A stretch of DNA of 32,000 bases from Corynebacterium glutamicum ATCC 13032 (GCF_000011325.1 NC_003450.3:1080001-1112000); one strand, 5' to 3'. Positions 4,380 to 16,750 are shown, counted from the stretch's first letter. Made by a program: numbers and translations. The notes: generated by a model not told the origin, from the sequence alone.

Positions 4380-5465
4380 GTGACCCTTACTCTTGGAATC
4401 GTCGGCCTGCCCAACGTTGGCAAGTCCACCCTGTTCAACGCCCTGACTCGCAATGACGTGCTCGCAGCGAACTACCCGTTCGCCACCATCGAGCCAAACG
4501 TGGGCCTTGTCGAGCTTCCAGACGCTCGCCTTGAACGCCTTTCTGAAATCTTCGGCTCTGAGCGCATCCTGCCAGCAACCGTGTCTTTCGTTGACATCGC
4601 CGGAATCGTTAAGGGAGCTTCCGAAGGCGAAGGAATGGGCAACGCTTTCCTTGCCAACATCCGCGAAGCAGACGCTATCTGTCAGGTTGTGCGCGCATTC
4701 GCTGACGAAAACGTCATTCACGTCGATGGTGAAGTTAACCCAGCAACCGATATCTCTGTGATCAACACCGAGCTGATCCTCGCCGACCTGCAGACCGTGG
4801 AAAAAGCACTCCCACGCCTCGAAAAGGATGCACGCAAAGACAAGGGACTTGGCGAAGTCGTAGATGAGACCAAAAAAGCCCTTGCGATCTTGAGCGATGA
4901 CCGCACCTTGTTCTCTGCAGCAAAAGCTGGCGACATTGATCTGGCCCTCCTGCGCGATCTCCACCTGATGACAGCAAAGCCTTTCCTCTACGTCTTCAAC
5001 TCCGACGAAAAAGTGCTCACCGACGACGCCAAGAAGGACGAACTCCGCGCACTAGTCGCGCCAGCAGACTGCGTATTCCTTGACGCACAAACTGAAACCG
5101 AACTTCTTGAACTCGAAGAAGACGAAGCAGCAGAACTCCTCGAAGCTGTAGGCCAAACGGAACCAGGCCTACACTCCCTCGCACGTGCAGGATTTGAAAC
5201 CCTCGGACTACAGACCTACCTCACCGCGGGTCCTAAGGAATCACGCGCCTGGACCATCCACAAGGGCGACACCGCTCCACAGGCAGCAGGCGTTATCCAT
5301 TCTGACTTCGAACGCGGCTTCATCAAGGCTGAAATCGTCTCCTTCGAAGATCTTGACGCTGCTGGTTCCATGGCGGAAGCCAAGGCCCAGGGCAAAGTCC
5401 GCCAAGAAGGTAAGGACTACGTGATGGTCGATGGCGACGTTGTGGAGTTCCGGTTTAACGTCTAG
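4380..5465 (+). CDS. ychF: Redox-regulated ribosome-binding ATPase YchF (Obg-like)
   Basis: TLTLGIVGLPNVGKSTLFNAL P-loop, and a C-terminal TGS-like end ...DGDVVEFRFNV. The likely start is GTG 4380 (or GTG 4374); the ORF-track TTG 4362 adds residues not typical of YchF. Confidence 0.95.
   Translation: MTLTLGIVGLPNVGKSTLFNALTRNDVLAANYPFATIEPNVGLVELPDARLERLSEIFGSERILPATVSFVDIAGIVKGASEGEGMGNAFLANIREADAICQVVRAFADENVIHVDGEVNPATDISVINTELILADLQTVEKALPRLEKDARKDKGLGEVVDETKKALAILSDDRTLFSAAKAGDIDLALLRDLHLMTAKPFLYVFNSDEKVLTDDAKKDELRALVAPADCVFLDAQTETELLELEEDEAAELLEAVGQTEPGLHSLARAGFETLGLQTYLTAGPKESRAWTIHKGDTAPQAAGVIHSDFERGFIKAEIVSFEDLDAAGSMAEAKAQGKVRQEGKDYVMVDGDVVEFRFNV
5442..5465 (+). repeat. Direct repeat copy A (authentic ychF 3' end, GTGGAGTTCCGGTTTAACGTCTAG)
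   Basis: Encodes VEFRFNV plus the stop codon. The same 24-mer recurs at 6943-6966 and, diverged, at 7620-7643. Confidence 0.9.
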
Positions 5466-5498
5466 CGTTATTGACGCTCCTCGTTATACGCTGGTCTC

Positions 5499-5780
5499 GT
5501 GATCAGATCGTTCGCCGACCGCGACACCGAGTTGGTCTGGTTGCGTGAAGGTGCGAAACGCGTCGATCCGCGAATACACAAAGTGGCGAATCGGAAGCTG
5601 CATCTGCTGGACGCGGCGACGACCCTCGATGCTCTGCGTGTGACTCCGGGGAATCGCCTGGAAACGCTCGAGGGTGATCGAGTCGGTCAGTACAGCATTC
5701 GAGTCAACGACCAGTGGCGGATCTGCTTCCGTTGGAACGACTCGGGCCCCGAAAACGTCGAGATCGTGGATTATCACTGA
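5499..5780 (+). CDS. higB: HigB-type toxin (RelE/ParE superfamily, plasmid-maintenance killer)
   Basis: 93 aa. MIRSFADRDTE...LEGDRVGQYSIRVNDQWRICFRW...VEIVDYH matches the HigB pattern (KxF..., GDR.G.WSIR.N..WRI.F, ..DYH end). GTG start. Confidence 0.85.
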   Translation: MIRSFADRDTELVWLREGAKRVDPRIHKVANRKLHLLDAATTLDALRVTPGNRLETLEGDRVGQYSIRVNDQWRICFRWNDSGPENVEIVDYH

Positions 5781-5790
5781 GGAGGAGACG

Positions 5791-6090
5791 ATGGCTCAGA
5801 AGCTCTACCCGCCGATTCACCCTGGTGAGATTCTCATGGAGGACTTCATCAAGGGCTTCGGCCTCACACAGAACAAGGTCGCCGTATCGATCGGGGTGCC
5901 TCCGCGACGCATCAACGAGATCGTGCACGGCAAGCGATCCATCACGGCCGATACGGCTCTGCGTCTCGGGCGGTACTTCGGTATCGACCCGCAGTTCTGG
6001 CTGAGCCTTCAGACTCAGTACGAGTTGGAGCTCGATCGCGACGCCGGTGCAGCGACTTACGCACAGATCACGCCGCTGAAGGTCGCGTGA
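5791..6090 (+). CDS. higA: HigA-type antitoxin (XRE helix-turn-helix)
   Basis: MAQKLYPPIHPGEILMEDFIKGFGLTQNKVAVSIGVPPRRINEIVHGKRSITADTALRLGRYFG is the classic HigA/VapI motif. GGAGGAG RBS lies 3 nt upstream of ATG 5791, which is 10 nt after the higB stop. Confidence 0.85.
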   Translation: MAQKLYPPIHPGEILMEDFIKGFGLTQNKVAVSIGVPPRRINEIVHGKRSITADTALRLGRYFGIDPQFWLSLQTQYELELDRDAGAATYAQITPLKVA

Positions 6091-6920
6091 GCTCGGTGGC
6101 CAGAAAACATCTGCTCTCCCTGGCAGACTGGAACAGAGGCGAGCTTGAGGCATTATTCGAGCTCGCGGAGCAGTATGAAGCTGGCGGTGGGCCACGATTC
6201 GATGGTGCCGCGGCGATGTTCTTCCCGCCGACGAGTTTGCGTACACGGCTCTCATTCGAGCGTGGGGCAACGGCAATGGGACTCCAGCCGATCACGTTCC
6301 CGTCAGACAGCCTGGACAAGGACGAAGATCTCGTCGACGTCGTCGGCTATCTCTCGCAGTGGGCTGATGTCGTTGTCGTCCGACACCCGCAATTGACGGC
6401 GCTTCAGCGGTTGGCGTCAGCGGATGCAGCGCCCGTGATCAACGCGATGACGAGTGAGAACCATCCGTGCGAAGTCCTCTCGGACTTGTATGCGCTGTCT
6501 CGTCACCATGACATTTCGGCCCTGCGGTACCTGTTTGTCGGTGGCGATGGCAACATCGCCAGGGCCTGGTGGGAGGCGGCCCAAGCGTTCGGCCTCGAGA
6601 TGCGGCAGAGTTGTCCTGAAGAGCTGCGTGTCGTCGGGATGCCGTGGGAGGAGAACCTGCCGCATGCAATTGCATCAGCGGATGTCGTGCTGACGGATGG
6701 GCCAGGTAGACATGCGGAGTTACTCGAGCCGTATCGTGTGACCGCTGCGTTGTTGGATCGCGCGCCCCGTGGAGTGCGGCTCGCGCCCTGCCCGCCGTTC
6801 ATCCGCGGGCGCGAAGTGAGCGCCGATGCGATCGAGCATCCGGCGTTCGTCGGGTACTCGTTCAAGCGTCATCTCATGCCGGTTCAGCAGGCGATTCTGG
6901 CTCGGTCGATCAATGCGTAG
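6087..6920 (+). CDS. Short, divergent aspartate/ornithine carbamoyltransferase-fold protein
   Basis: 277 aa. SLRTRLSFE (compare STRTR), HPCEVLSDL (compare HPxQ), LAPCPPF (compare HCLP). N-terminal KHLLSLADWNRGELEALFELA resembles OTCase. The GTG start overlaps the higA stop (GTGA). Confidence 0.65.
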   Translation: MSSVARKHLLSLADWNRGELEALFELAEQYEAGGGPRFDGAAAMFFPPTSLRTRLSFERGATAMGLQPITFPSDSLDKDEDLVDVVGYLSQWADVVVVRHPQLTALQRLASADAAPVINAMTSENHPCEVLSDLYALSRHHDISALRYLFVGGDGNIARAWWEAAQAFGLEMRQSCPEELRVVGMPWEENLPHAIASADVVLTDGPGRHAELLEPYRVTAALLDRAPRGVRLAPCPPFIRGREVSADAIEHPAFVGYSFKRHLMPVQQAILARSINA

Positions 6921-6942
6921 CGGTTTTCGGTGTCGGAACTCG

Positions 6943-6966
6943 GTGGAGTTTCGGTTTAACGTCTAG
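6943..6966 (+). repeat. Direct repeat copy B of the ychF 3' end (23/24 identical)
   Basis: GTGGAGTTTCGGTTTAACGTCTAG, preceded by CGGAACTCG, which also precedes copy C. A weaker partial echo (GTTCCGGTTCAACC) follows at about 6971-6984. Confidence 0.85.
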
Positions 6967-7040
6967 TCGCGTTCCGGTTCAACCTCTTGCACAAGCGTCG
7001 GCCCCTGAAAGGAGCCGGCGCTGGTGTTCTCAGTTCGCTA

Positions 7041-7544
7041 CTACTCAAACGTCATCCCGAGAACCGTCCGGACGGGAATGTTTCCGCCATGGTCGTCTGC
7101 CAGTCGATGCATACCGAGCTTTCGGGCGACGCGTTCCGAAGCTTCGTTCTCGGGGTGGATGATGGCGACCAACTCGGGTGAGCCTACAACGTCGCGTGCG
7201 TAGTCGCGGCATGCAATGGCGGCTTCGGTCGCGTAACCGAGGCCCTGCCTTGCGGTGACGACGTGGTAGCCGACCTCGAGCTTGGGTGCGCCATTCACCT
7301 CTTGCCACGTGAGGCCGCAGTCGCCAACGAACTCGCCGTGGATCGTCTCGACGATCCATAGGCCGTAGCCGTGCTCCGCGTAGTTCTCTTCATTCCAAGT
7401 GATCCACCTGGCTGCCTGCTCGCGTGTTTTCGCGGAGGGGTAGAAACGCATCACTTCAGGATCCCCGAGCATGTCGGCCATGAGATCGATGTCAGCAGGC
7501 CGCTTGCGGCGGAAGCGGCGGCGTTGGGTATTTGGCGGAGTCAC
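7041..7544 (-). CDS. GNAT family N-acetyltransferase (RimJ/RimL-like)
   Basis: 167 aa. LGDPEVMRFYP...GLWIVE...GEFVGDCGL...VGYHVVTARQGLGYATEAA...HPENEASERVARKLGM is the typical Acetyltransf_3-type motif order. Confidence 0.85.
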   Translation of the reverse strand: MTPPNTQRRRFRRKRPADIDLMADMLGDPEVMRFYPSAKTREQAARWITWNEENYAEHGYGLWIVETIHGEFVGDCGLTWQEVNGAPKLEVGYHVVTARQGLGYATEAAIACRDYARDVVGSPELVAIIHPENEASERVARKLGMHRLADDHGGNIPVRTVLGMTFE

Positions 7545-7619
7545 TGGTTCAGCGTAGTTGCGGGGAGGCCTCGGTCCAAAAGTTGGCTGAGGTTAGAGGT
7601 TGGTATCCGCCGGAACTCG

Positions 7620-7643
7620 GTGGAGTTCAAGTTCAACGTGTGA
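7620..7643 (+). repeat. Direct repeat copy C, a diverged ychF 3' end
   Basis: GTGGAGTTCAAGTTCAACGTGTGA reads VEFKFNV plus a stop, the same peptide tail as ychF with one substitution and silent changes. It is preceded by CGGAACTCG, as copy B is. Confidence 0.75.
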
Positions 7644-7660
7644 CGGGCGCAGAAGAGTGG

Positions 7661-8316
7661 TCAGTCGCGGGGGACGCCAGTCGCTCGAGTGATCACTGGG
7701 TCGAACTGGCGATCGGTGAGGATGTTGCGCGAGGCAATCAGCGGTTTGGCACCGAAGCCGATGGCATAGCGGGTCTTGGGGTGACGTGCCGTCACGGCCT
7801 TTCCAATCGCATCGGCGACAACCGACGGTGGTGAGTTGCGGTTGCTGTTCGCCTCAGATCGCAACGACTTCGATACTGCGTCAGCCTGGCGCTTGTATGC
7901 GCTGTCTTTCGACACTGCGTCGAGATTGTCGGCAGCGATTCCTCCCCACTCGGTGGCGATGCCGCCCGGTTCGATGACAACAACGTCGATGCCGAATGGG
8001 GCGACCTCCAGGCGGAGGGCGTCCGAGAGGGCCTCGAGGGCGAACTTGGTGCCGTGATACCAGCCGCCGAGAGGCGTGTAGATCTTCCCGCCCATCGATG
8101 TGATGTTCACGATCGTCCCCCACTTTTGTTTCTGCATGTGGGGCAGGACGAGTCGGGTGAGGGCCATCGCGCCGAATACATTGACCTCGAACTGGCGACG
8201 GCCTTCATCGATTGTCATCGGTGACGTCCATCTCGAGGGGGTGGATCCCGTCTGAAGCGAGCTTTTGGGGGCGCTCTGTCCTGCGGGCAGCACCGTAGAC
8301 GGTGAAGCCGAGTGAT
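7661..8316 (-). pseudogene. Short-chain dehydrogenase/reductase (classical SDR), decayed
   Basis: The C-terminal two thirds are intact (RRQFEVNVFG...NITSMGG...YHGTKFALEAL...VVVIEPGGI). An upstream piece, SLGFTVYGAARR...LEMDVTDDN, lies in another frame with about 35 codons missing between them. The TGxxxGIG N-terminus is cut off at 8316 by the ISL3 repeat. Confidence 0.8.
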
Positions 8317-8358
8317 GGCTCTTCCGGTTTTAGAGTGCACTCTAAAACCGGAAGAGCC
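8317..8358. repeat. Perfect 42-bp palindrome made of two ISL3-type terminal inverted repeats with no body between them
   Basis: GGCTCTTCCGGTTTTAGAGTGCACTCTAAAACCGGAAGAGCC. Its first 22 nt are identical to the terminal repeat of the ISL3 remnant at 15371-15392. The flanking 8-mers differ (CGAGTGAT versus ACTAAAAC), so there is no target duplication. Confidence 0.8.
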
Positions 8359-8361
8359 ACT

Positions 8362-9940
8362 AAAACCCCTGTGTCCACTTTCCGGGGGGTGTTCCTATAT
8401 AGGTTGTCAACTCCGTGGGTGAGGTTGCTGGGGGTGTGAAGGGGTTCTGCTTCACGCTGCGGATGTTGTTTTCGGGCATGCTGAAGAGCCGATTGGGCTT
8501 CCTGCACAATCGGCTTCGGGGCTTGTAGGGGCTAGGCCGCTGCGGCCTCCTGGGCTGTGGGGATGTCTCTGTAGAGCTCTCCGCTGCGCATCATGGCGAA
8601 GAGGACGTTGAGGCGTCGGCGTGCGAGCGCGACGACTGCGGCGTTGTGTCTTTTGCCTTCGTTGCGTTTTCGTTCATAGAATTGCCGGGAACGCTCGTGG
8701 AATCTGATCGATGCAAAAGACGACTGCCATAGGGCGTTCTTCAATTTCTTGTTGCCGGCCCGGTTGGGCGAATTCGACATGATCGACGTTCCCGACTGAT
8801 TTGTCTGCGGCGACAGGCCTGCATAGGACGCCAGGTGCGCTGCATCGGGAAAGTCGGACATATCGCCGACGGTCATAAGGATTTGCGCGGCGCTACGTGG
8901 GCCGATGCCGGGCATGGACAAGAGAATCTCGGTCTGAGGAATGTCCTGGATCAGCTCGAGTACCTGGCCTTCAATCTCTTTGCGGTGCTCCAGCTTGGCT
9001 AGTGCATCTTTGGCGGACATTGCTACGCCAAGTTCCGCGTATTCTGCGCCGGCGATGGATACCGTCTGGCCGTGGATCGCAGCAAGCATGGCATCGATAA
9101 CTGGCTCAGGATTACGTGCCCTGTGACCACGTGCGAAAGCTGCCAGCCGTGCTTTGCCGACGCGTCGAATCTTGGTGGGGCCACCGTATTTCGCCAGAAG
9201 GTGGAGAATCCACTTGCGGTGAATCATCTGCCCACGCAGGACATGTTCGAATGCGGGGTAGGTGCCCACGAGCGCGGATTGCATCTGGTTGATCAGGCGT
9301 GTGTAGGCGCGGGCGAGGTCTTCGTCGATACCGTTGAGGACTTTCAGCTGGAGGAAGACTTCCTCAACGCGGTCGACGCTACGCAGGGCATCCGGAAGGT
9401 TGAGGCCGGCATGGGCGATGACATAAGCGTCCCGTACATCGGTCTTGGAGTTGCCGACGTGGATACGTGAAAGTTGTCGCATGGCAAGCCCGGGGAGGTA
9501 GCGAACGTCGGCTCCCATTGCTTGGGCGACTGCGACGGTTAGCCTGCCGATGTTGTTGGGCTGATCGACGACGACAAGGACCTCGGCGTCATTGGCCAGG
9601 AATTTGTCGAAGAGCTTGCGTAGCGAGCCTTCGTGTTGGTTGATGCGTTTGGATAGGACTTGTCTGCCCTGGGGATCGAGGACGCAGGCGTGGTGGAAGT
9701 ATTTGCCGACGTCCATTCCAATGACGAAGTCATAGGCCATGAGTCTGTGCCTCCTAGCGATGAGTAGGGAGTTGGATTATTTACGCTTCATCGCTGGGGT
9801 GGTCGGACATACTTGTGCTGGCATCCACATTACTGTGAGACCTCGTGCCTCCTGGGCCGGGTCAGGTTCCTATTAGCAGTTTGAGTATGTCACTGTCTTC
9901 GGCGGCATCACCCCCCGGATCATTTTCAGACAGGGACAGG
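8362..9940 (-). mobile_element. IS110-family insertion sequence; ends approximate
   Basis: One DEDD-type transposase gene. It is bracketed by an 11-bp perfect inverted repeat, TCCGGGGGGTG 8381-8391 versus CACCCCCCGGA 9909-9919. The repeat extends imperfectly outward (CCCTGTGT 8367-8374 versus the reverse complement of 9927-9934, CCCTGTCT). The size, about 1.58 kb, is typical for the family. Confidence 0.75.
8532..9740 (-). CDS. IS110 family transposase/recombinase (DEDD RuvC-like N-domain plus C-terminal transposase_20 domain)
   Basis: 402 aa. MAYDFVIGMDVGKYFHHACVLD...VVVDQPNNIG...KTDVRDAYVIA...MPGIGPRSAAQIL...LASYAGLSPQTNQSGTS...GNKKLKNALW are hallmark IS110 motifs. Confidence 0.95.
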   Translation of the reverse strand: MAYDFVIGMDVGKYFHHACVLDPQGRQVLSKRINQHEGSLRKLFDKFLANDAEVLVVVDQPNNIGRLTVAVAQAMGADVRYLPGLAMRQLSRIHVGNSKTDVRDAYVIAHAGLNLPDALRSVDRVEEVFLQLKVLNGIDEDLARAYTRLINQMQSALVGTYPAFEHVLRGQMIHRKWILHLLAKYGGPTKIRRVGKARLAAFARGHRARNPEPVIDAMLAAIHGQTVSIAGAEYAELGVAMSAKDALAKLEHRKEIEGQVLELIQDIPQTEILLSMPGIGPRSAAQILMTVGDMSDFPDAAHLASYAGLSPQTNQSGTSIMSNSPNRAGNKKLKNALWQSSFASIRFHERSRQFYERKRNEGKRHNAAVVALARRRLNVLFAMMRSGELYRDIPTAQEAAAA

Positions 9941-10162
9941 AATAAACCATACCGAAGCCAGCGACTAGTTCCACTGTCCTTTCGGACGGCGGGAACGGAC
10001 ATAAACATAGTCCGCCCTCTCGGGTGGACGGACTATGAATCTTCGGTGCCCTGGGGTGGAACTGCTAACAACGTAATGGGCAGGCCCAAAAGAATACTTT
10101 AAAAGGATAAGATTTATATGACAGCCTGATTCACATTGTAAAAGCCCTATTCTCCGTGAAGG

Positions 10163-13100
10163 ATGACGATTGCTGTGAATACGACCAGTCGTTGGCTACT
10201 TGCCAATTCCAGTGACCCCTTGTTGTATCGAGACAGTTCACTGCTGGTTGCTTTGTTGCGTCAGATTGTCTTTGCGTTCGCGTATTTGATTGCTGTAATT
10301 GGCTCATACTCACTGGTATACGGCGATTCGTTAGTCGCAATTGTGTGGCCATCAGTGGGAATCGCTGTGTGGTGGGCCGTGACCTGCAGAAGCTGGAAAA
10401 ACTTCGCCCTGATTTGTGGATACGTGTTTCTAGTCCCAGCCATATACCTGCACTTTTTTGCGGAAACCTCCCTCAGGGGAGTGATTCTGGCAGGAATTGC
10501 GCACGCTATCGCAGGTCCTGGCGTTGCACTGGTTATGGCATTCATGGAAAATGCGCAATTGCCAGAACTGTTGCGTAAACGGCATGCATTCGCACCCTTC
10601 TCCCATATTCGCCTTCCAGGCGATGTATTCCGGCTCCTCGTCGCGGGCATTGTCATGGTCGCAATATCCAAATTGATTGTGATTCTTGCTTATGCACTGG
10701 CAGATTTGCCGTATTCATTCACCCTTTATCTGACGATGGCCCTTCGTGACTTGACTGGCATTATTGTGGTTGCCGGGCCCGGAATTGCACTTTCGACGCC
10801 GCTGGTACTAAATATTCACCGATCAGCATGGCGCGAGTTCGCAGTTGTTATCATAGCTACGGTCGGAGTGCTGGCGCTCATTTTCGGATTTGCTGTGGAT
10901 CTTCCGACGGTCTACTTGGCAATGTTGCCATTGTATTGGAGTGCAACCCGTCTTCCAGTGCTTTTAGCCGTTCTTCATGCGGTGTTTACTTCAGCAATAG
11001 TCGTAATTCTGTATTTCCTATTAGGTACCGGATCTTTTGCGATTACGGATGAATCCATACTGGTGCAGGCAACGACAATTCAGCTTTTTGTTCTGATGTG
11101 TATCTTGTTGTCGCTAGTTGTGTCAACGACAGTCCAGCAGACATCAGCACTGGTTGAAGAGCTAGAGGTGGTAGCGAAGACCCTTCCTGATGCGCTTTTT
11201 ATCGTAAACAAAAATGGAACAGCATTTCCTGTTAACGCAGGCGCGAAAAATTTCGTCAAGCAATCACCGGATGGGCATTATTCCATGCCGAAACTACAGA
11301 ATATAGACGGTGAACCCATGGATGAGAAAGAAAGTCCGAGCAGTATGGCCTTGCGTGGACAAGGTGTCGAAGGAGTATTAGCCAAGTTAGGTGAAGTACT
11401 GGGAGAAGATCCGGACTTGGCGCGTCGAATCTTCGAAATTAGTGCCTCACCGATGTATCTGCGTGGAGAAACTGAACCGGGTCATGCGCTCGTGATTTGG
11501 CATGACAGTACTAATGAGTATTACACGATGCAACAATTGACGCTTGCATATGAAGAATCGCGGCTGCTATTTGAAAAAGCCCCTCAAGGGATTGCCATGC
11601 TGGACCCTTCGGGAGAAATCGTAATGGCGAATCGATCCTTTGGTGACTTGGTGGGAACGACTCCTGTTCGACTCCTAGGACGAAATCTAGAGGATTTCGG
11701 AGTAGAGGAGGGAACCATGGAATACGTGACCCCTGTTCTGTCGGACCCAGAAGCCGTTGTGCACTTAGATCGTTCGCTCGAAACATTGAGAGGTAAACAG
11801 AAAAACGTTGCTATGTCATTTAGCTCGATGGGCAATGTTGGAGGCAGAATCGGAACTTTACTCGTTAATGTTGTCGATGTAACCGAGCGCCAAGAACTCA
11901 TCGAGCTTGTGGAGCATTTGGCGGATCATGACTCCCTGACAGGATTGGTCAATCGCAGGCGGCTGGAATCTGATATCGAAGAGCTTATCCTCAAGAATGA
12001 ACGCGATTCGACCGATAGTGCATTGTTGCTTTTGGATCTGGATTACTTCAAGGAAGTTAATGATTCCCTCGGCCATGAGGCTGGTGACCAGTTGCTTATT
12101 GAGTTTGCTGAGATCCTCAAAGACAGCGTGAGGGATTCCGACATTGTCGGACGCATCGGCGGCGATGAATTCGTTATTGTTTTGCCTGACACAGACAGGG
12201 ATGGCGCTGAAGCAATCGGTATAAGAATTATTGAGTTGGTCAATCAGCACTTCAAAGGCCGAGGAAAAGTGTTATCGCGGGTGTCAGTAAGTATCGGCGG
12301 GACGCTCTTTTCTGATGCTCGTGCCCAAGGTGTGAATCCATTCATTCTTGCTGATCAGCTGCTTTACGATGCTAAGCACGCAGGTAGAAATCGGGTTGCG
12401 GTGCGCAGAGCTGAAAACACCATTGTCCGCTCAGCTAAGCCCGCATTCTCAGTTGAGGAACTTTCGGAGATCCTGGAGTCACATTCTATTCGCCTCGAGC
12501 TGCAGCCGATCCTAGAACTTGAAACAGGTCGGGTGGGTGCAGCCGAAGGTCTGCTCCGAATCAACTTGGATGGCACCGATGTTCCTACGGGGCAGTTTGT
12601 TCAGTCGGTTGAACAGGCCGGGCTAGCCCCGAAGCTTGATATCGCAGTCATGAGAGAAGGAATTAATCATATTGAGAGGCTGAGAGCTGTGTGTCCGACT
12701 TTCAGCCTCGCTTTGAATCTGTCGGGCTATTCTCTGAGCTCGGCGAAAATACGGGAGGAACTAAGAGCCGAATTTAGAGCTCGCGATCTGCCAAGGGGAT
12801 CAATTAGGTTTGAGATTACTGAGACCGCTCCGATTGAAGACATTGACGCGGCAAAAGAGTTTGTGCAGATGTTGAAAGATTTTGGCTTCCACATCGTAAT
12901 CGATGACTTTGGCGCAGGACATGAGCCTTATCAATATCTAAAGAAGTTCGACTTTAGCGTGCTGAAGATTGCAGGTGAATTCATAGAAGGTATGGTCACC
13001 AACCGCGTGGACCGAAGCATCGTCGAATCTATTGCTCAACTTGCTAAGGATGAGGAGATGGAAACTGTCGCCGAGTTTGTTTCAAGCAAGGAGATTTTGG

Positions 13101-13219
13101 AGGCGGTACGAGAGATAGGCGTAACGTACGCCCAGGGTTTCCATATTGGTAAATCTAAGCCGATTGATGAATTTATAGCTACTTATCTCGAGACGAACCA
13201 AACCGCTACCTGGGGGTAG
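10163..13219 (+). CDS. Membrane sensor diguanylate cyclase/phosphodiesterase (MASE1-like 8-10 TM domain, 2 PAS, GGDEF, EAL)
   Basis: 1018 aa. The N-terminal polytopic domain has VAIVWPSVGIAVWWAV (MASE1-like). PAS-like LFEKAPQGIAMLDPSGEIVMANRSF. RIGGDEFVIV with an RDSD I-site 5 residues upstream. EAL domain motifs EITETA, DDFGAGHEPYQYL, LKIAGEF, QGFHIGKSKP. Confidence 0.9.
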   Translation: MTIAVNTTSRWLLANSSDPLLYRDSSLLVALLRQIVFAFAYLIAVIGSYSLVYGDSLVAIVWPSVGIAVWWAVTCRSWKNFALICGYVFLVPAIYLHFFAETSLRGVILAGIAHAIAGPGVALVMAFMENAQLPELLRKRHAFAPFSHIRLPGDVFRLLVAGIVMVAISKLIVILAYALADLPYSFTLYLTMALRDLTGIIVVAGPGIALSTPLVLNIHRSAWREFAVVIIATVGVLALIFGFAVDLPTVYLAMLPLYWSATRLPVLLAVLHAVFTSAIVVILYFLLGTGSFAITDESILVQATTIQLFVLMCILLSLVVSTTVQQTSALVEELEVVAKTLPDALFIVNKNGTAFPVNAGAKNFVKQSPDGHYSMPKLQNIDGEPMDEKESPSSMALRGQGVEGVLAKLGEVLGEDPDLARRIFEISASPMYLRGETEPGHALVIWHDSTNEYYTMQQLTLAYEESRLLFEKAPQGIAMLDPSGEIVMANRSFGDLVGTTPVRLLGRNLEDFGVEEGTMEYVTPVLSDPEAVVHLDRSLETLRGKQKNVAMSFSSMGNVGGRIGTLLVNVVDVTERQELIELVEHLADHDSLTGLVNRRRLESDIEELILKNERDSTDSALLLLDLDYFKEVNDSLGHEAGDQLLIEFAEILKDSVRDSDIVGRIGGDEFVIVLPDTDRDGAEAIGIRIIELVNQHFKGRGKVLSRVSVSIGGTLFSDARAQGVNPFILADQLLYDAKHAGRNRVAVRRAENTIVRSAKPAFSVEELSEILESHSIRLELQPILELETGRVGAAEGLLRINLDGTDVPTGQFVQSVEQAGLAPKLDIAVMREGINHIERLRAVCPTFSLALNLSGYSLSSAKIREELRAEFRARDLPRGSIRFEITETAPIEDIDAAKEFVQMLKDFGFHIVIDDFGAGHEPYQYLKKFDFSVLKIAGEFIEGMVTNRVDRSIVESIAQLAKDEEMETVAEFVSSKEILEAVREIGVTYAQGFHIGKSKPIDEFIATYLETNQTATWG

Positions 13220-13226
13220 GAAGAAT

Positions 13227-14696
13227 ATGAAAAAGAAGAGCTTTCCAATCGCAAGAGTCATCGGTATCGGCGTCCTTGGCATCGCCGGGATGGGAATATT
13301 GTTGCTATGGCTTGCAGTTACCCTGTCTGATCCAGCATCACCGGGTGCCAAAGAAACCGAAGTCTTTGATAGGTGGAAAGTGCTCTTTGATGACTATATT
13401 CCACCAGTCAGGGTATTGGTTGCTGCGATTATCGTTGCATTAATTTTCGTCTTTATCGCTGCCACAGTGGAACGAACCGTAACCAACCGCTACCGAAGCT
13501 CCGTAGACGGCGAAAGAGTGCCATTAGCGCCGAAGATTGTGATGGCAGAAACCCGAGGGGTATTTCATGGACCGATTACCATTAACGTGCTCGTGCCAGC
13601 ACACAATGAGGCGGAAAGAATTACTGGAACAATTCAGGCATTGAAATCACAACATGAGCCTCCAGAACGCATCGTTGTAGTTGCCGATAATTGCACTGAT
13701 GAAACTACGGAATTAGCCCGTGCTGAGGGAGTGGAGGTCTTGGAAACAGTCAATAATAAGTTTAAGAAGGCCGGAGGACTCAATCAGGCTTTGAGCCGGA
13801 TGCTTCCCACATTGGGGGAGAATGACATTGTGATGATCGTTGACGCTGATACAGCACTTGATCAAGGTTTCCTCAAGGAAGCACGGCGCCGCTTTGAGTC
13901 TGATCGCGCTCTAATGGCCGTGGGCGGATTGTTCTACGGTGAGTCAGGCTCCGGATGGCTTGGCCAATATCAGCGCAACGAATACACCCGTTATAGCCGT
14001 GACATCTATCGACGCCGCGGACGTGTGTTTGTTTTGACTGGAACAGCGTCGGCTTTTCGGCCACGCGGCCTGCGGACAGTAGCGGAATCACGCGGGACAT
14101 TGATCCCCGGACGTAAAGGCGATGTTTATGACACCGCGGCGTTGACCGAAGATAATGAGTTGACCCTGGCTTTGAAATCACTCGGAGGGCTTATGGTGTC
14201 ACCCAATGAGTGCTCAGTAGTGACAGAAGTGATGCCGACTTGGAGAGAATTATGGCATCAAAGGCTTCGATGGCAACGCGGTGCGCTGGAAAACCTCGGT
14301 GCTTATGGCATCACACCACAAACGACACGGTATTGGTTCCAGCAGCTGGGAATCGGTTACGGCGCATTAGCCTTGGTCGCCTATTTCGCAGTCATTATCA
14401 TTACGTTTCTCGCCCGCGATCAATGGATCTGGTATCCATTCTGGATGCTGCTGGGACTGTTGTTCATGATTGAACGCGTGCTAACGGTGTGGAGATCCAC
14501 ATGGTTTGCCAGGTTTGTTGCTGCGTTATTAATCCCAGAGCTCATCTACGCCAGCTATCTCAACCTGGTATTTCTCAAAGGCGTTGTGGATATTCTATTG
14601 GCCAAGCAAGCTCACTGGGGTGAGCATGGTGACAAGACAATGCAGGTAGCCGATGCAGCTGCCGAAATTAACGATGAAGGGGAGGAACGCCGATGA
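13227..14696 (+). CDS. Membrane-embedded processive family-2 glycosyltransferase (PgaC/IcaA/NodC/cellulose-synthase-like polysaccharide synthase)
   Basis: 489 aa. Two N-terminal TM helices. VLVPAHNE, VVVADNCTDET, IVDADT (DxD), LTEDNELT (TED), HQRLRWQRGALE (QxxRW), then 3-4 C-terminal TM helices. The start is 8 nt after the sensor gene stop, with AGGAAG as RBS. Confidence 0.9.
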   Translation: MKKKSFPIARVIGIGVLGIAGMGILLLWLAVTLSDPASPGAKETEVFDRWKVLFDDYIPPVRVLVAAIIVALIFVFIAATVERTVTNRYRSSVDGERVPLAPKIVMAETRGVFHGPITINVLVPAHNEAERITGTIQALKSQHEPPERIVVVADNCTDETTELARAEGVEVLETVNNKFKKAGGLNQALSRMLPTLGENDIVMIVDADTALDQGFLKEARRRFESDRALMAVGGLFYGESGSGWLGQYQRNEYTRYSRDIYRRRGRVFVLTGTASAFRPRGLRTVAESRGTLIPGRKGDVYDTAALTEDNELTLALKSLGGLMVSPNECSVVTEVMPTWRELWHQRLRWQRGALENLGAYGITPQTTRYWFQQLGIGYGALALVAYFAVIIITFLARDQWIWYPFWMLLGLLFMIERVLTVWRSTWFARFVAALLIPELIYASYLNLVFLKGVVDILLAKQAHWGEHGDKTMQVADAAAEINDEGEERR

Positions 14697-14914
14697 TCTT
14701 TTCAGAAGAGATTCTCCATACCGACTGGTTCGCAGCACTTGCTGCTTTCGTCGCGATTAACACAACAATCTATGTGGTTCTTGCTATTGCCAAGACGCTG
14801 CCGAAGATTTATGTCACTGACTACTTACCGCGGAATTATGAGCGTGCTGAGACACGCAGCATTTATCCAGACGTTGAAGAACCGAAAAGGAAGAAGTCTG
14901 AGAAGAAGGATTAG
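14693..14914 (+). CDS. Small (73 aa) single-TM protein with a Lys/Glu-rich tail, translationally coupled to the glycosyltransferase
   Basis: ATGA start/stop overlap with the upstream gene and GGAGGA 6 nt upstream. TM segment WFAALAAFVAINTTIYVVLAIA. I recognise no family. Confidence 0.6.
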   Translation: MIFSEEILHTDWFAALAAFVAINTTIYVVLAIAKTLPKIYVTDYLPRNYERAETRSIYPDVEEPKRKKSEKKD

Positions 14915-15051
14915 GGCGGATAACGAATGCGCACGGCTTCAACCATTGTTTAGGCAACTCCCGACGATAATTCAGGTACCTCGTTCCTTCAATTTGAGGT
15001 CGTCGTTCGACTAGGTAGCAAGCAGTAGATTGAGTCCATTAGAGGGTTGAG

Positions 15052-15370
15052 ATGGCTACTTCGGCACTGAAATTTTTGCTGCTTGGGTTTGGCGCGATTG
15101 GTCGCCAACTTGTTACGCTCTTCGACGAGGGAGAGTTTGGAGTCGAGGCGTTTACCCGTGCTGTCTCCCCACACATTGCGCATGGGACTTTGGGAATTGA
15201 GCTGTATGACGACCAACTGCCCAAGCTCATCGCAGACAGCGGCAGTGTGGTCGAAGTAGCACACGGCAAGGATCTCGTTCTGACGTCGGTGGGCGCGCTA
15301 GCTGAGCAGGTCGTGCGACAAGCGCTACTTGTAGGTTCCGGGAAAGTGCACGTGACTTCGGGCGCAATCG
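15052..15370 (+). pseudogene. Aspartate-dehydrogenase-like (NAD-binding, DUF108-type) gene, 3'-truncated by the ISL3 end
   Basis: LLLGFGAIGRQL Rossmann start ...LTSVGALAEQ...VHVTSGAIG. The reading frame then runs straight into the ISL3 terminal repeat at 15371, and the remainder of the gene is absent. Confidence 0.6.
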
Positions 15371-16340
15371 GGCTCTTCCGGTTTTAGAGTGCGTTGATTT
15401 TGTGGGTGAGTTGTCCGGAGTGGATGAGACAGTGCAGGATGTAGTGGTTGAGGTTGCGAAATCCTAGGGCGATTCCGCGGAGGTGTTCGAGTCGTCCGTT
15501 GATTGCTTCTACGGGTCCGTTAGAGATTCCGACATCGAAATACGCCAGGATGTCACCGAGGCGTTTGTGTAGGCTGCGGCCTAGTTGTGCAAGTTCTCGA
15601 TTCGCTTGTCCTTTCAGTAGCCGCATCTGGTCAACAATCTCGCGCATCATGGTCTTTGCGCGGCGTTTATCGGCCATGTTGTATCAGTCAATAATGCCTT
15701 GATACGCCTGCCACATCAGTTGCAGTGCCGCGTAGTCTTTATCAAAGCTAAACAACTCATCAAGACGCTTTGCTTTTTCTTACTCAACCATTTTTGCGTG
15801 GTCAGCAAGGTTTTCCGGTTCTTATACAACGGGTCATCATGCAAACCCCGCCGGTGGTATTTTTCCTGCTGCAAACGTTGTCGGCATCGGGTGAGTTTAT
15901 CGCCGGCGAGGAGTACCACGTGGAAAGGATCCATGACTCGGCGTGCGGCGGGCAGAAGTTGTTTGCTGGTTGTGGCATAGCCTTGGAATCCATCCATAGT
16001 TACAATGCGTACTTGGTGTCGAAATGCTGGGCTTCGGCGTGCAAGCCACGCCCGCAACGCATCAGCACTGCGGCCTTCGACTACATCAAGCAACCTCGCT
16101 GGGGACGTGGCATCGCGGTGGAAGGCTGGTCATATTAACAATGACGGTGACATAGCCATCACCATGTTTTAATCGGTTATGAGATCATTTGTGCTCATCG
16201 ACGCCAATAACGTGCACAATTTCTAGGTGGGTGGGGTCGTAGTAGATGAGTTCGTGGCACATATCTAGGGCTAGTTGGCAGGTGAGATCCCAGCCTAGAC
16301 CGAGGGCTTTCGCGGTTGCTGCGATACTCATACGGTCGAT
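15371..16340 (-). mobile_element. ISL3-family insertion sequence remnant (IS31831-like); one end intact, the other deleted
   Basis: Terminal repeat GGCTCTTCCGGTTTTAGAGTGC at 15371-15392. Transposase fragments lie on the minus strand in three frames. The N-terminal third of the transposase (about 125 aa) and the second terminal repeat are missing. Confidence 0.85.
15384..16335 (-). pseudogene. ISL3 family transposase, multiply disrupted
   Basis: Fragments: RLDIDRMSIAATAKALGLGWD...VIGVDEHKW; (frameshift near 16095) LLDVVEGRSADALRAWL...MDGFQGY...MDPFHVV; (frameshift in an A-run near 15775) ...LQLMWQAYQGIID; TGA at 15684-15686 where Trp is expected; then YNMADKRR...SNGPVEAINGRLEHLRGIALGFRNLNHYILHCLIHSGQL. 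Confidence 0.85.
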
Positions 16341-16750
16341 GTCGAGGCGTTACAATCGATGTTGTCGAATAAGGCGATTTCGAGTTTGAAAACTGTGTGA
16401 CCATTGCGTTCGTAGAGGATATTTGGATTTCTGGCATCAAGCATTGCTTGGTCATGTTCATCGACGAACATGTTGTCGTAGCCGTGTTTCCCGCCGTCGA
16501 AAACCGTGATTTCTTCGTCGGTGTCAGTCGCCTTCGCGATGACAATGATCGGCTCGTCATCTGTGCGGACAAGAAGCTCGTAATGTTCGAAGATAGTGCC
16601 GTTGTGCTACAGCTCGAACTTCGTGCCGCTGTTTGAAGAATGCAAGGTTAGCGTGCGACCGAAATCTTGGGTGGTTAATGTGGCGTGACCTCCAAGGTGT
16701 GATGGAATTGGCTCGTTCCAAGTCGAATTCTGTCCAGCTGTTTTAGGCAT
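16340..16750 (-). pseudogene. Unknown protein gene coupled to the SUKH gene; in-frame TAG and 3' truncation
   Basis: ATG 16750 overlaps the SUKH gene end by 8 nt. Reads MPKTAGQNSTWNEPIPSHLGGHATLTTQDFGRTLTLHSSNSGTKFEL, then TAG (16607-16609), then HNGTIFEHYELLVRTDDEPIIVIAKATDTDEEITVFDGGKHGYDNMFVDEHDQAMLDARNPNILYERNGHTVFKLEIALFDNID. It ends abruptly at the ISL3 fragment. Confidence 0.5.

Follow-up and report, generated by a model that had tools for sequence, protein, structure and literature searches.

Gene cassettes lacking an integrase are stacked behind ychF in Corynebacterium glutamicum and other Actinomycetota, probably at the attachment site of a family of serine recombinases

The DNA considered here is a stretch of 32,000 nucleotides from Corynebacterium glutamicum ATCC 13032 (NC_003450.3:1080001-1112000), called the window, with positions counted from its first letter. 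It contains ychF followed by two small gene islets, which are bounded by copies of the last 24 bp of ychF (Table 1). Three such copies, A, B and C, had been described in the original prediction, made from this DNA alone, and their coordinates and mismatches were verified. In 100 shuffles of the window 0.00 chance matches to the 24-mer are expected at up to three mismatches. No further occurrence is found within the 32 kb, so that on this scale it is not a dispersed repeat, the case that had been named as speaking against the idea. As had been observed, the nine bases CGGAACTCG are found before copies B and C and not before A, though the shared arm is longer than this: in front of copy C there is a motif of about 26 nt that is kept throughout the phylum, and in front of copy B a weaker version of it. 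Within the arm CGGAACTC forms an inverted repeat with GAGTTCCG of the tail. The degenerate tail GTCGCGTTCCGGTTCAACCTCTTG accompanying the second islet is also found after a tail in a Glutamicibacter locus (L115; loci from other genomes are numbered in this way), with related forms in L061 and L066, and its intact counterparts in other loci encode VAFRFNV and a stop codon. Another candidate tail, GTGGAACTGCTAACAACGTAA at 10052-10075, proved to be the end of an IS110 insertion sequence (IS) and is absent from strain L032. A palindrome in the putative attachment (att) site at the end of ychF, GACGTT...AACGTC, is not kept in other species and was taken as chance.

Table 1. Features at and downstream of ychF in the window. 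P and B denote element-type and target-type half-sites of an attachment site.
Feature	Position	Strand	Basis or remark
ychF (361 aa), target gene	4380-5465	+	Pfam MMR_HSR1 and YchF-GTPase_C; identical gene in C. glutamicum ATCC 13032, BX927147
attB-like site TGATGGTC-GAT-GGCGACGTT-[GT]-GGAGTTCCG-GTT-TAACGTCT-AG, last 44 bp of ychF	5422-5465	+	Includes copy A
Copy A, GTGGAGTTCCGGTTTAACGTCTAG	5442-5465	+	True end of ychF
Body of cassette 1: higB 5499-5780, higA 5791-6090, OTCase-like gene 6087-6920	5466-6917	+	Pfam; GC 0.609; not present in strains of the L032 and L028 types
P-type arm of cassette 1, ending in CGGAACTCG	6918-6942	+	Compared base by base with the site consensus; outer motif degenerate
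Copy B	6943-6966	+	One base different from copy A; with the preceding arm, attR-type junction (P arm, GT, B' tail)
Degenerate fourth tail copy, GTCGCGTTCCGGTTCAACCTCTTG	6966-6989	+	Directly after copy B; accompanies the GNAT cassette
Body of cassette 2: GNAT acetyltransferase 7041-7544	6967-7594	-	Pfam Acetyltransf_3; GC 0.614
P-type arm of cassette 2, AGAGGTTGGTATCCGCCGGAACTCG, laid out AGAGGTTG-GTATCCGC-CGGAACTCG	7595-7619	+	Outer motif at half-site bp 18-25; identical arm in L115
Copy C, GTGGAGTTCAAGTTCAACGTGTGA	7620-7643	+	6/24 bases different from copy A; encodes VEFKFNV and a stop codon; now attR-type junction
SDR remnant, N-terminally truncated, 93-nt internal deletion	7644-8315	-	Pfam adh_short from profile position 93 on; alignment to L032
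44-bp perfect palindrome, two abutted ISL3-type terminal inverted repeats (GGCTCTTCCGGTTTTAGAGTG)	8316-8359		Marks a 3.2-kb loss
IS110-family insertion sequence, transposase 8532-9740	8388-10079	-	Pfam DEDD_Tnp_IS110 and Transposase_20; absent from L032-type strains

The islets encode, by Pfam, HigB, an HTH_3 antitoxin, an OTCace_N/OTCace protein of 277 aa and, on the minus strand, a GNAT protein. They had been described as richer in GC than their flanks and free of any recombinase, and both descriptions hold: windowed GC is 0.61 against 0.50-0.52 (0.519 upstream of ychF, 0.499 in the region 10080-16741), and a tblastn search with the family of large serine recombinases (LSRs) discussed below found none encoded in the window. 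The GC-rich block extends beyond the two islets to about 9800, and the SDR remnant stands at 0.622. Positions 6930-7627, which contain the GNAT cassette, are 98.4% identical over 698 nt to DNA of Glutamicibacter sp. JC586 (L115), a member of a different order, with identical ends and only 6 mismatches in about 660 nt of cassette body; the cassette is bounded there by the same kind of sites as in the window. No match to plasmids was obtained by megablast with 5300-10200, Rfam gave on the same region only a sub-threshold miRNA match, on the ISL3 palindrome, and a literature search on cg1172-cg1175 returned only human methylation probes. Typical ornithine and aspartate carbamoyltransferases are usually longer than 300 aa, so the OTCase-fold protein is short for its kind. 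A pseudogene 67-71% similar to it lies at an older cassette position in L032-type strains (L032:12750-13560), which suggests that such a cassette entered the locus at least twice.

Contigs with the islet proteins all come from derivatives of ATCC 13032. Amongst natural C. glutamicum strains YchF varies only in its last residues, which read IVDFKFNV, VVEFKFNV, VVEFRFNV (ATCC 13032) or VVEFRSGLTSGGKK. In the VVEFKFNV strains (L032, L035 and others) the end of ychF is the exact sequence of copy C and is followed by the same downstream DNA as in the window, as would be expected if copy C is the tail of another ychF allele, which had been proposed. The order in L032-type strains is ychF, 17 nt, a full-length SDR gene, a TetR gene, a junction GGAACTCG-GTGGAGTTTAAGTTAAACGTTTAG (copy D) and an OTCase-like pseudogene, and window 7620-8212 matches L032 11063-11655 at 98.0%. 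Since other strains carry copy C and the full-length SDR gene right at the end of ychF, ATCC 13032 has evidently gained cassettes: by this alignment it is an L032-like arrangement with 2.18 kb, the two cassettes, inserted precisely at the ychF tail, and copy C is evidently the displaced former functional tail of its lineage.

The same arrangement is widespread. One genome per species was scanned with the pattern AACTCGGTGGAGTTYNNNTTNAAYGT and an 8-kb piece was taken per locus, which gave 97 loci, each from a different species genome, against about 0.3 expected by chance. All of these genomes are labelled Actinomycetota except for two records of metagenome-assembled genomes, and the genera include Brachybacterium, Microbacterium, Brevibacterium, Arthrobacter, Glutamicibacter, Kocuria, Corynebacterium, Nocardioides, Mycobacterium, Rhodococcus, Amycolatopsis, Saccharopolyspora, Nonomuraea and several propionibacteria. 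Wherever ychF was in view within the 8-kb piece it lay upstream on the same strand (39/39), and 36 of the 97 pieces contain between two and four sites. The cassettes that are bounded on both sides (n=91) range from 327 to 6074 nt with a median of 1444 nt. Their content is diverse, with 237 open reading frames (ORFs) falling into 186 clusters, and amongst the families represented are GNAT, AAA_33, TetR, SDR, glyoxalase, PIN, HigBA, AAA_13, ApeA, Abi_2, AbiH, GmrSD, beta-lactamase, APH and MatE. ORF calling in this high-GC DNA was difficult, as choosing the longest ORF gave many antisense artefacts and a picker based on GC3 was only partly better, and the Pfam census of the cassettes is therefore a lower bound. 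Within that census, in which the 34 longest cassette ORFs were checked, no integrase was found inside the 91 cassettes, nor was there a recurrent recombinase cluster among the 97 loci. Tails without a body also occur in tandem, a tail then being followed by TCGCGTTCCGG.

In the other loci cassettes most commonly begin with HigBA right behind a tail. HigB is present in 30 loci, always in the orientation of ychF, and 34 of its 37 copies begin no more than 80 nt from a tail. These cassettes (window 5454-5500; also, for example, L059, L068 and L134) almost always start right after a tail ending in TTTAACGTCTAG, which together with the next bases makes the palindrome TTAACG-TCTAG-CGTTAA, followed by a promoter-like stretch TTGACG...TATAC. 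The stop codon of ychF seems to lie within a likely HigA operator, as predicted from this palindrome.

To locate the breakpoint, the 16 nt following GTGGAGTT were compared pairwise across 149 sites. Pairs with only the downstream body in common have a mean identity of 0.90 over these 16 nt (n=92), against 0.69 for pairs with only the upstream body and arm in common (n=22) and 0.72 for background pairs (n=10,690), which places the exchange after ...CTCG and before tail base 9. The 16 nt therefore move together with the DNA that follows them rather than with the arm in front, in keeping with the site-specific insertion that the original prediction had put forward. In Corynebacterium, Brachybacterium, Aeromicrobium and Microbacterium one and the same arm occurs in combination with different tails. 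On these comparisons, cassettes without an integrase have evidently been inserted precisely, repeatedly and site-specifically at the GT of the ychF tail.

Taken together, 145 distinct sites give the consensus cAGAGGTTG-N8-CGGAACTCG-[GT]-GGAGTTCCG-N3-CAACGTCT, in which sequence conservation is strong and reaches 2 bits at single positions. Its halves form a dyad about a central GT that is itself not palindromic, and the inner motifs mirror each other (CGGAACTC-G[GT]G-GAGTTCCG). The outer motif, by contrast, is found at bp 18-25 on the arm (AGAGGTTG) and at bp 13-20 in the tail (CAACGTCT), and on the ychF side TGATGGTC is likewise at bp 13-20. In the site at the end of ychF in the window, read against this consensus and the A118/LI integrase model (PMC3783163), the central GT is 5442-5443 and both outer motifs are at bp 13-20, the B-type spacing. 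Three ychF tails of another type, called P' (L029, L070 and L141), have the outer motif at bp 18-25. In serine integrases a 5-bp shift of the motif bound by the zinc-ribbon domain (ZD) tells attP-type from attB-type half-sites (PMC3783163). The equivalent shift seen here suggests that arm and tail together make up an attR and that the end of ychF is a 42-bp attB; the reconstructed sites measure 42 bp for attB and 52 bp for attP. Copies B and C would thus be the attR-type junctions they had been predicted to be, whereas copy A, thought to be an attL, is instead attB-like (B and B') and not a canonical attL.

LSR genes adjoin this site in several genomes. In Nonomuraea (L084) an intact LSR of 489 aa with the Pfam domains Resolvase and Recombinase, located by tblastn, has its start codon abutting a P arm. 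In Nocardia (L137/L138) 17 nt separate a homologous arm from an LSR with 70% identity, and the LSR of Promicromonospora (L141) begins 18 nt past ychF. In Microbacterium (L136) a ychF with a P'-type tail is followed by 9.5 kb, an LSR and then an arm and tail, and in Cryobacterium (L139) an LSR lies beside three sites, with relaxase and Thoeris genes. Elements that combine a recombinase with a core resembling the ychF tail, a search for which had been suggested as a check, do therefore exist (L084, L137, L141). The LSR family has 1521 relatives at E <= 1e-30, and the named organisms among the best 120 of the 1521 are all Actinomycetota. The LSR elements at ychF bear anti-phage cargo: L139:7917-9735 encodes Thoeris ThsA/ThsB and a HIT protein, together with relaxase and NikA, and L084:3712-7608 a trypsin-STAND-TPR protein of 1298 aa.

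The ychF tail of L141 (9950-9991), GT-CGAGTTCCG-GCACGGAG-CAACCTCT, is a P'-type half-site whose reverse complement corresponds to the P-arm consensus, so that attP would be a near-palindrome of 52 bp. A C. glutamicum array (L029) has a truncated copy of the LSR, and its YchF ends in ...RSGLTSGGKK (L029:11060-11104), the translation of such a half-site. P'-type tails accompany an LSR or LSR fragments in L029, L070, L136 and L141, while no LSR match was found by tblastn in any locus with a normal ychF tail in view. Endings resembling TSGGKK make up about 8% of the best 120 YchF clusters. From their sequences, YchF C-termini such as VVEFRSGLTSGGKK and VVEFRHGATSKK (P0124 and others) are evidently translated P'-type half-sites and not natural variants; true attL junctions at ychF yield a YchF ending of the type ...EFRxGxTSGGKK. 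Arms in L029 that looked B-like, as if they were fragments of ychF, were found to match instead the GACGTG-type P arm adjoining the Nocardia LSR. The one match in viral contigs has no tail, ychF or LSR and is due to chance.

The 3' end of ychF is, then, probably the attB (about 42 bp) of an LSR family of Actinomycetota, and the cassettes have probably been moved by LSR elements on which they hitch-hike. Strand exchange would take place at the GT that opens the codon run GTG GAG TTC. Copy A would be a regenerated attB-like site, made of the B half-site of ychF and a B'-type tail that came with cassette 1, and in copies B and C with their arms the P half-site of an element would be joined through GT to a former ychF tail serving as B' half-site. 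A cassette unit may be described as the remainder of a tail, one to three genes and a P arm, with the newest unit adjoining ychF. YchF would stay intact because each insertion supplies a new in-frame tail and stop codon. As the window encodes no recombinase, the enzyme would have acted in trans. We envisage that an LSR-bearing integrative element integrates at attB, and that its later excision by attL x attR may use an attR more distal or more proximal than its own. With a distal attR, cassettes would be captured; with a proximal one they would be left behind in the next host, and attB would be regenerated each time. This transport should need only canonical reactions. Free cassettes, on the other hand, would not enter by canonical attP x attB, given that every cassette has an attB-like site on its left and an attR-type site on its right. 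The islets had been suggested to be either decayed integrative elements or elements mobilised in trans, and we infer the latter.

Several observations weigh against hitch-hiking on LSR elements. Recombination was not observed. The tblastn search yielded no LSR in the window, and no free attP (P-GT-P') was found in metagenome contigs. Identity among the LSRs compared is no more than 53-70%, and their shared specificity is deduced from their position. The left junctions of the cassettes are attB-like and not attL, and the route was built to fit them; it also gives no account of the origin of the P arm in a new cassette. In front of copy B the outer motif of the arm is poor. The tail to the left of the GNAT cassette was not inherited together with it, since it has 4 synonymous differences in 13 nt compared to 6 in about 660 nt for the body, and a simple model must assume an extra body-less tail unit.

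Cassettes might alternatively be autonomous, existing as small circles with a P-GT-B' site that re-insert singly and reversibly at the attB of ychF, much as in integrons, with an LSR supplied in trans, perhaps aided by a directionality factor, or with a specialised relative of it. The sites this predicts are the observed ones, attB-like to the left and attR-like to the right of every cassette, and it would fit with the same right end being joined to many different neighbours across genera, with sizes like those of integron cassettes (median 1444 nt) and with the frequency of toxin-antitoxin cassettes, as in chromosomal integrons. We nevertheless regard it as unlikely, because serine integrases are reported to be limited to attP x attB or, with a directionality factor, attL x attR, with attR-type sites thought to be self-inhibited (PMC3783163), and no circular form was seen. 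A broader proposal would grant Actinomycetota, regarded as lacking integrons, a gene-cassette platform of their own, in which a self-renewing attB at ychF receives hundreds of different cassettes of 0.3-3 kb, every one with a P-type half-site at its end, which LSRs in trans would capture, reshuffle and exchange singly between genera, and including the non-canonical reaction P-GT-B' x B-GT-B'. This we put forward tentatively and with some doubt.

That the junctions are fossils only, each left by its own full-length LSR element, which integrated and later decayed by deletion, with no mobilisation in trans, appears improbable. LSR pseudogene fragments do occur in arrays L029/L030, L058, L070, L083 and L099, and deletions mediated by IS elements are evident in the window. 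However, one integration leaves no attB, which makes independent serial integrations by a serine integrase impossible, and decay should leave P'-type (TSGGKK-like) tails at ychF, whereas the classified tails, most of which are normal B'-type, have no P'-type half-site except in L060 and L070. Nor would decay readily account for a 0.66-kb cassette, 99% identical between two orders, whose ends are precise and which is free of LSR debris, or for the conservation of P arms in over 140 cassettes whose cargo is unrelated. Still less probable, and in our view barely credible, is a different machinery acting on a hairpin or on short homology, whether an integron-like tyrosine recombinase, XerCD on a single-stranded palindrome or RecA-type recombination on the 24-nt tail. 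Arm and tail can indeed pair as an imperfect, attC-like hairpin (CCGGAACTC/GAGTTCCGG, AGAGGTTG/CAACGTCT) and no enzyme is encoded in cis. Yet sequence is conserved as well as structure, including at the positions that would be bulged, the sites have neither a GTTRRRY core nor a dif-like 11-6-11 layout, no tyrosine recombinase recurs near the arrays, and Rfam was without result on 5300-10200. The breakpoint, moreover, is sharp at the edge of identity and not spread along the 24 nt, and it is LSR genes that adjoin the site.

The closest parallel to hitch-hiking by LSR elements at ychF is the staphylococcal cassette chromosome (SCC, including SCCmec), where the LSRs CcrAB and CcrC act at the 3' end of rlmH/orfX and pseudo-SCC elements without ccr are found. 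Both have a serine recombinase acting at the last codons of a housekeeping gene whose end is restored by the element, and direct repeats of the gene tail bounding tandem units, some of which have no recombinase and are served in trans. The ychF arrays differ in phylum, target gene and LSR lineage, being associated with neither Ccr, rlmH nor staphylococci. Their units, with a median of 1.4 kb and one to three genes as against tens of kb, are smaller and more numerous and occur in dozens of genera; at ychF, besides, the geometry of the half-sites can be read and the gene-side junction is attB-like. Accretion and cis-mobilisation are features of the integrative and conjugative elements (ICEs) ICESt1/ICESt3 and the associated cis-mobilisable elements (CIMEs) at the 3' end of fda in Streptococcus thermophilus. 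There, integrase-less elements flanked by att sites lie in tandem with an integrase-bearing one and are co-excised via alternative att pairs, which provides a model for hitch-hiking, although that system has a tyrosine integrase and large decayed ICEs where ychF has arrays of gene-sized cassettes.

Like integrons, the ychF arrays consist of promoter-poor cassettes of 0.5-2 kb that each end in a conserved imperfect palindrome, the newest adjoining the entry site, with diverse cargo and many toxin-antitoxin cassettes. They differ in having no intI, no attI/Pc platform and no RYYYAAC or GTTRRRY cores, and their entry site is in the tail of a coding gene. The anatomy of the site is of the serine-integrase type, and its sequence is strongly conserved, where attC sites of integrons are conserved in structure. 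Neither intI nor attI is found at ychF in the window, which is flanked by an esterase gene and higB, and no recombinase recurs in the 97 loci. Sites of dif type are 28 bp long in an 11-6-11 layout, and no such site is present in the site consensus.

The view in the original prediction that ychF had not been described as an integration hotspot has to be amended, as the gene has been named once as an integration site, from gene context only, for LSR-encoding pipolins of Actinomycetota (PMC11551731). Target gene, recombinase class and phylum are the same, though that work describes no att sequence and no cassette arrays (PMC11551731). Among the Pfam families for the islet genes of the window, and among the top Pfam families for LSR loci and for cassettes (the top 25 for the latter), there was no polymerase family and no match to the primer-independent family-B DNA polymerase piPolB, for which no dedicated search was made. 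Compared with the att sites of phage serine integrases (A118/LI, Bxb1, phiC31), the ychF sites share an attP of about 50 bp, an attB of about 40 bp, a non-palindromic central dinucleotide and the 5-bp ZD shift (PMC3783163). The ychF elements are, however, not phages, and at least one (L139) carries a relaxase. No description of cassette arrays at ychF was found in the literature searched; the system is one of SCC-like accretion with integron-like arrays.

If the interpretation is right, there would be a second route beside integrons, mechanistically different from them, for stockpiling and trading single-gene cassettes. The cargo at stake includes toxin-antitoxin, acetyltransferase, anti-phage defence, beta-lactamase, APH and efflux genes, and among the hosts are industrial, cheese-rind, skin and clinical Actinomycetota. 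It would explain why this part of the reference genome of the industrial strain C. glutamicum ATCC 13032 is variable, as well as the odd '...TSGGKK' C-termini of annotated YchF, which would mark, visibly in the proteome, the integration of a serine-recombinase element. The attB/attP pair so defined for a family of serine integrases, with its numerous natural variants, may find use in actinobacterial genome engineering. The question is also raised of whether serine integrases can act on hybrid sites.

Further rearrangements have affected the DNA beyond copy C. The 3.2 kb lost at the ISL3 remnant includes, in L032, the TetR gene and the arm and tail junction copy D. The IS110 element, in which 9741-10079 is a non-coding end, sits between ...ctttccgggg and gcaggcccaaaag and is a later insertion, outside the cassette system. 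An empty site in which ychF is joined to the sequence at about 10080, as had been suggested, does not exist, since the DNA up to 10079 is the end of this later element. Two apparent empty sites, in L013/L015 and L017 (CP017995, CP080542), belong to engineered chassis strains, genome-reduced or IS-free: the deletion begins exactly at 5463/5464 and fuses ychF to nadS, and the IS-free strain is without 8335-9922. Such assemblies look like natural empty sites and could mislead automated comparisons.

A third copy of the ISL3-type repeat is present at 15371-15391, and in some ATCC 13032-derived strains (L002, L016) 8338-15371 has been deleted between ISL3 repeats, with loss of the MASE1-GGDEF-EAL gene and a glycosyltransferase. 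The strain L028 has a low-GC ychF tail followed by unrelated genes; 12 of the last 31 nt differ, and homology with the window ends at 5434 and restarts at 16742, which makes the end of ychF the edge of a variable region. In this strain (JYEG01000010, 11056-12847) 1.8 kb of unrelated DNA takes the place of 11.3 kb (window 5435-16741), including the MASE1-PAS-GGDEF-EAL gene at 10163-13219 and a GT2 glycosyltransferase gene, and the strain-variable region is thus far larger than the two islets. On the 1.8 kb lie a gene resembling that of a nucleoside deoxyribosyltransferase and a fragment of ParD.

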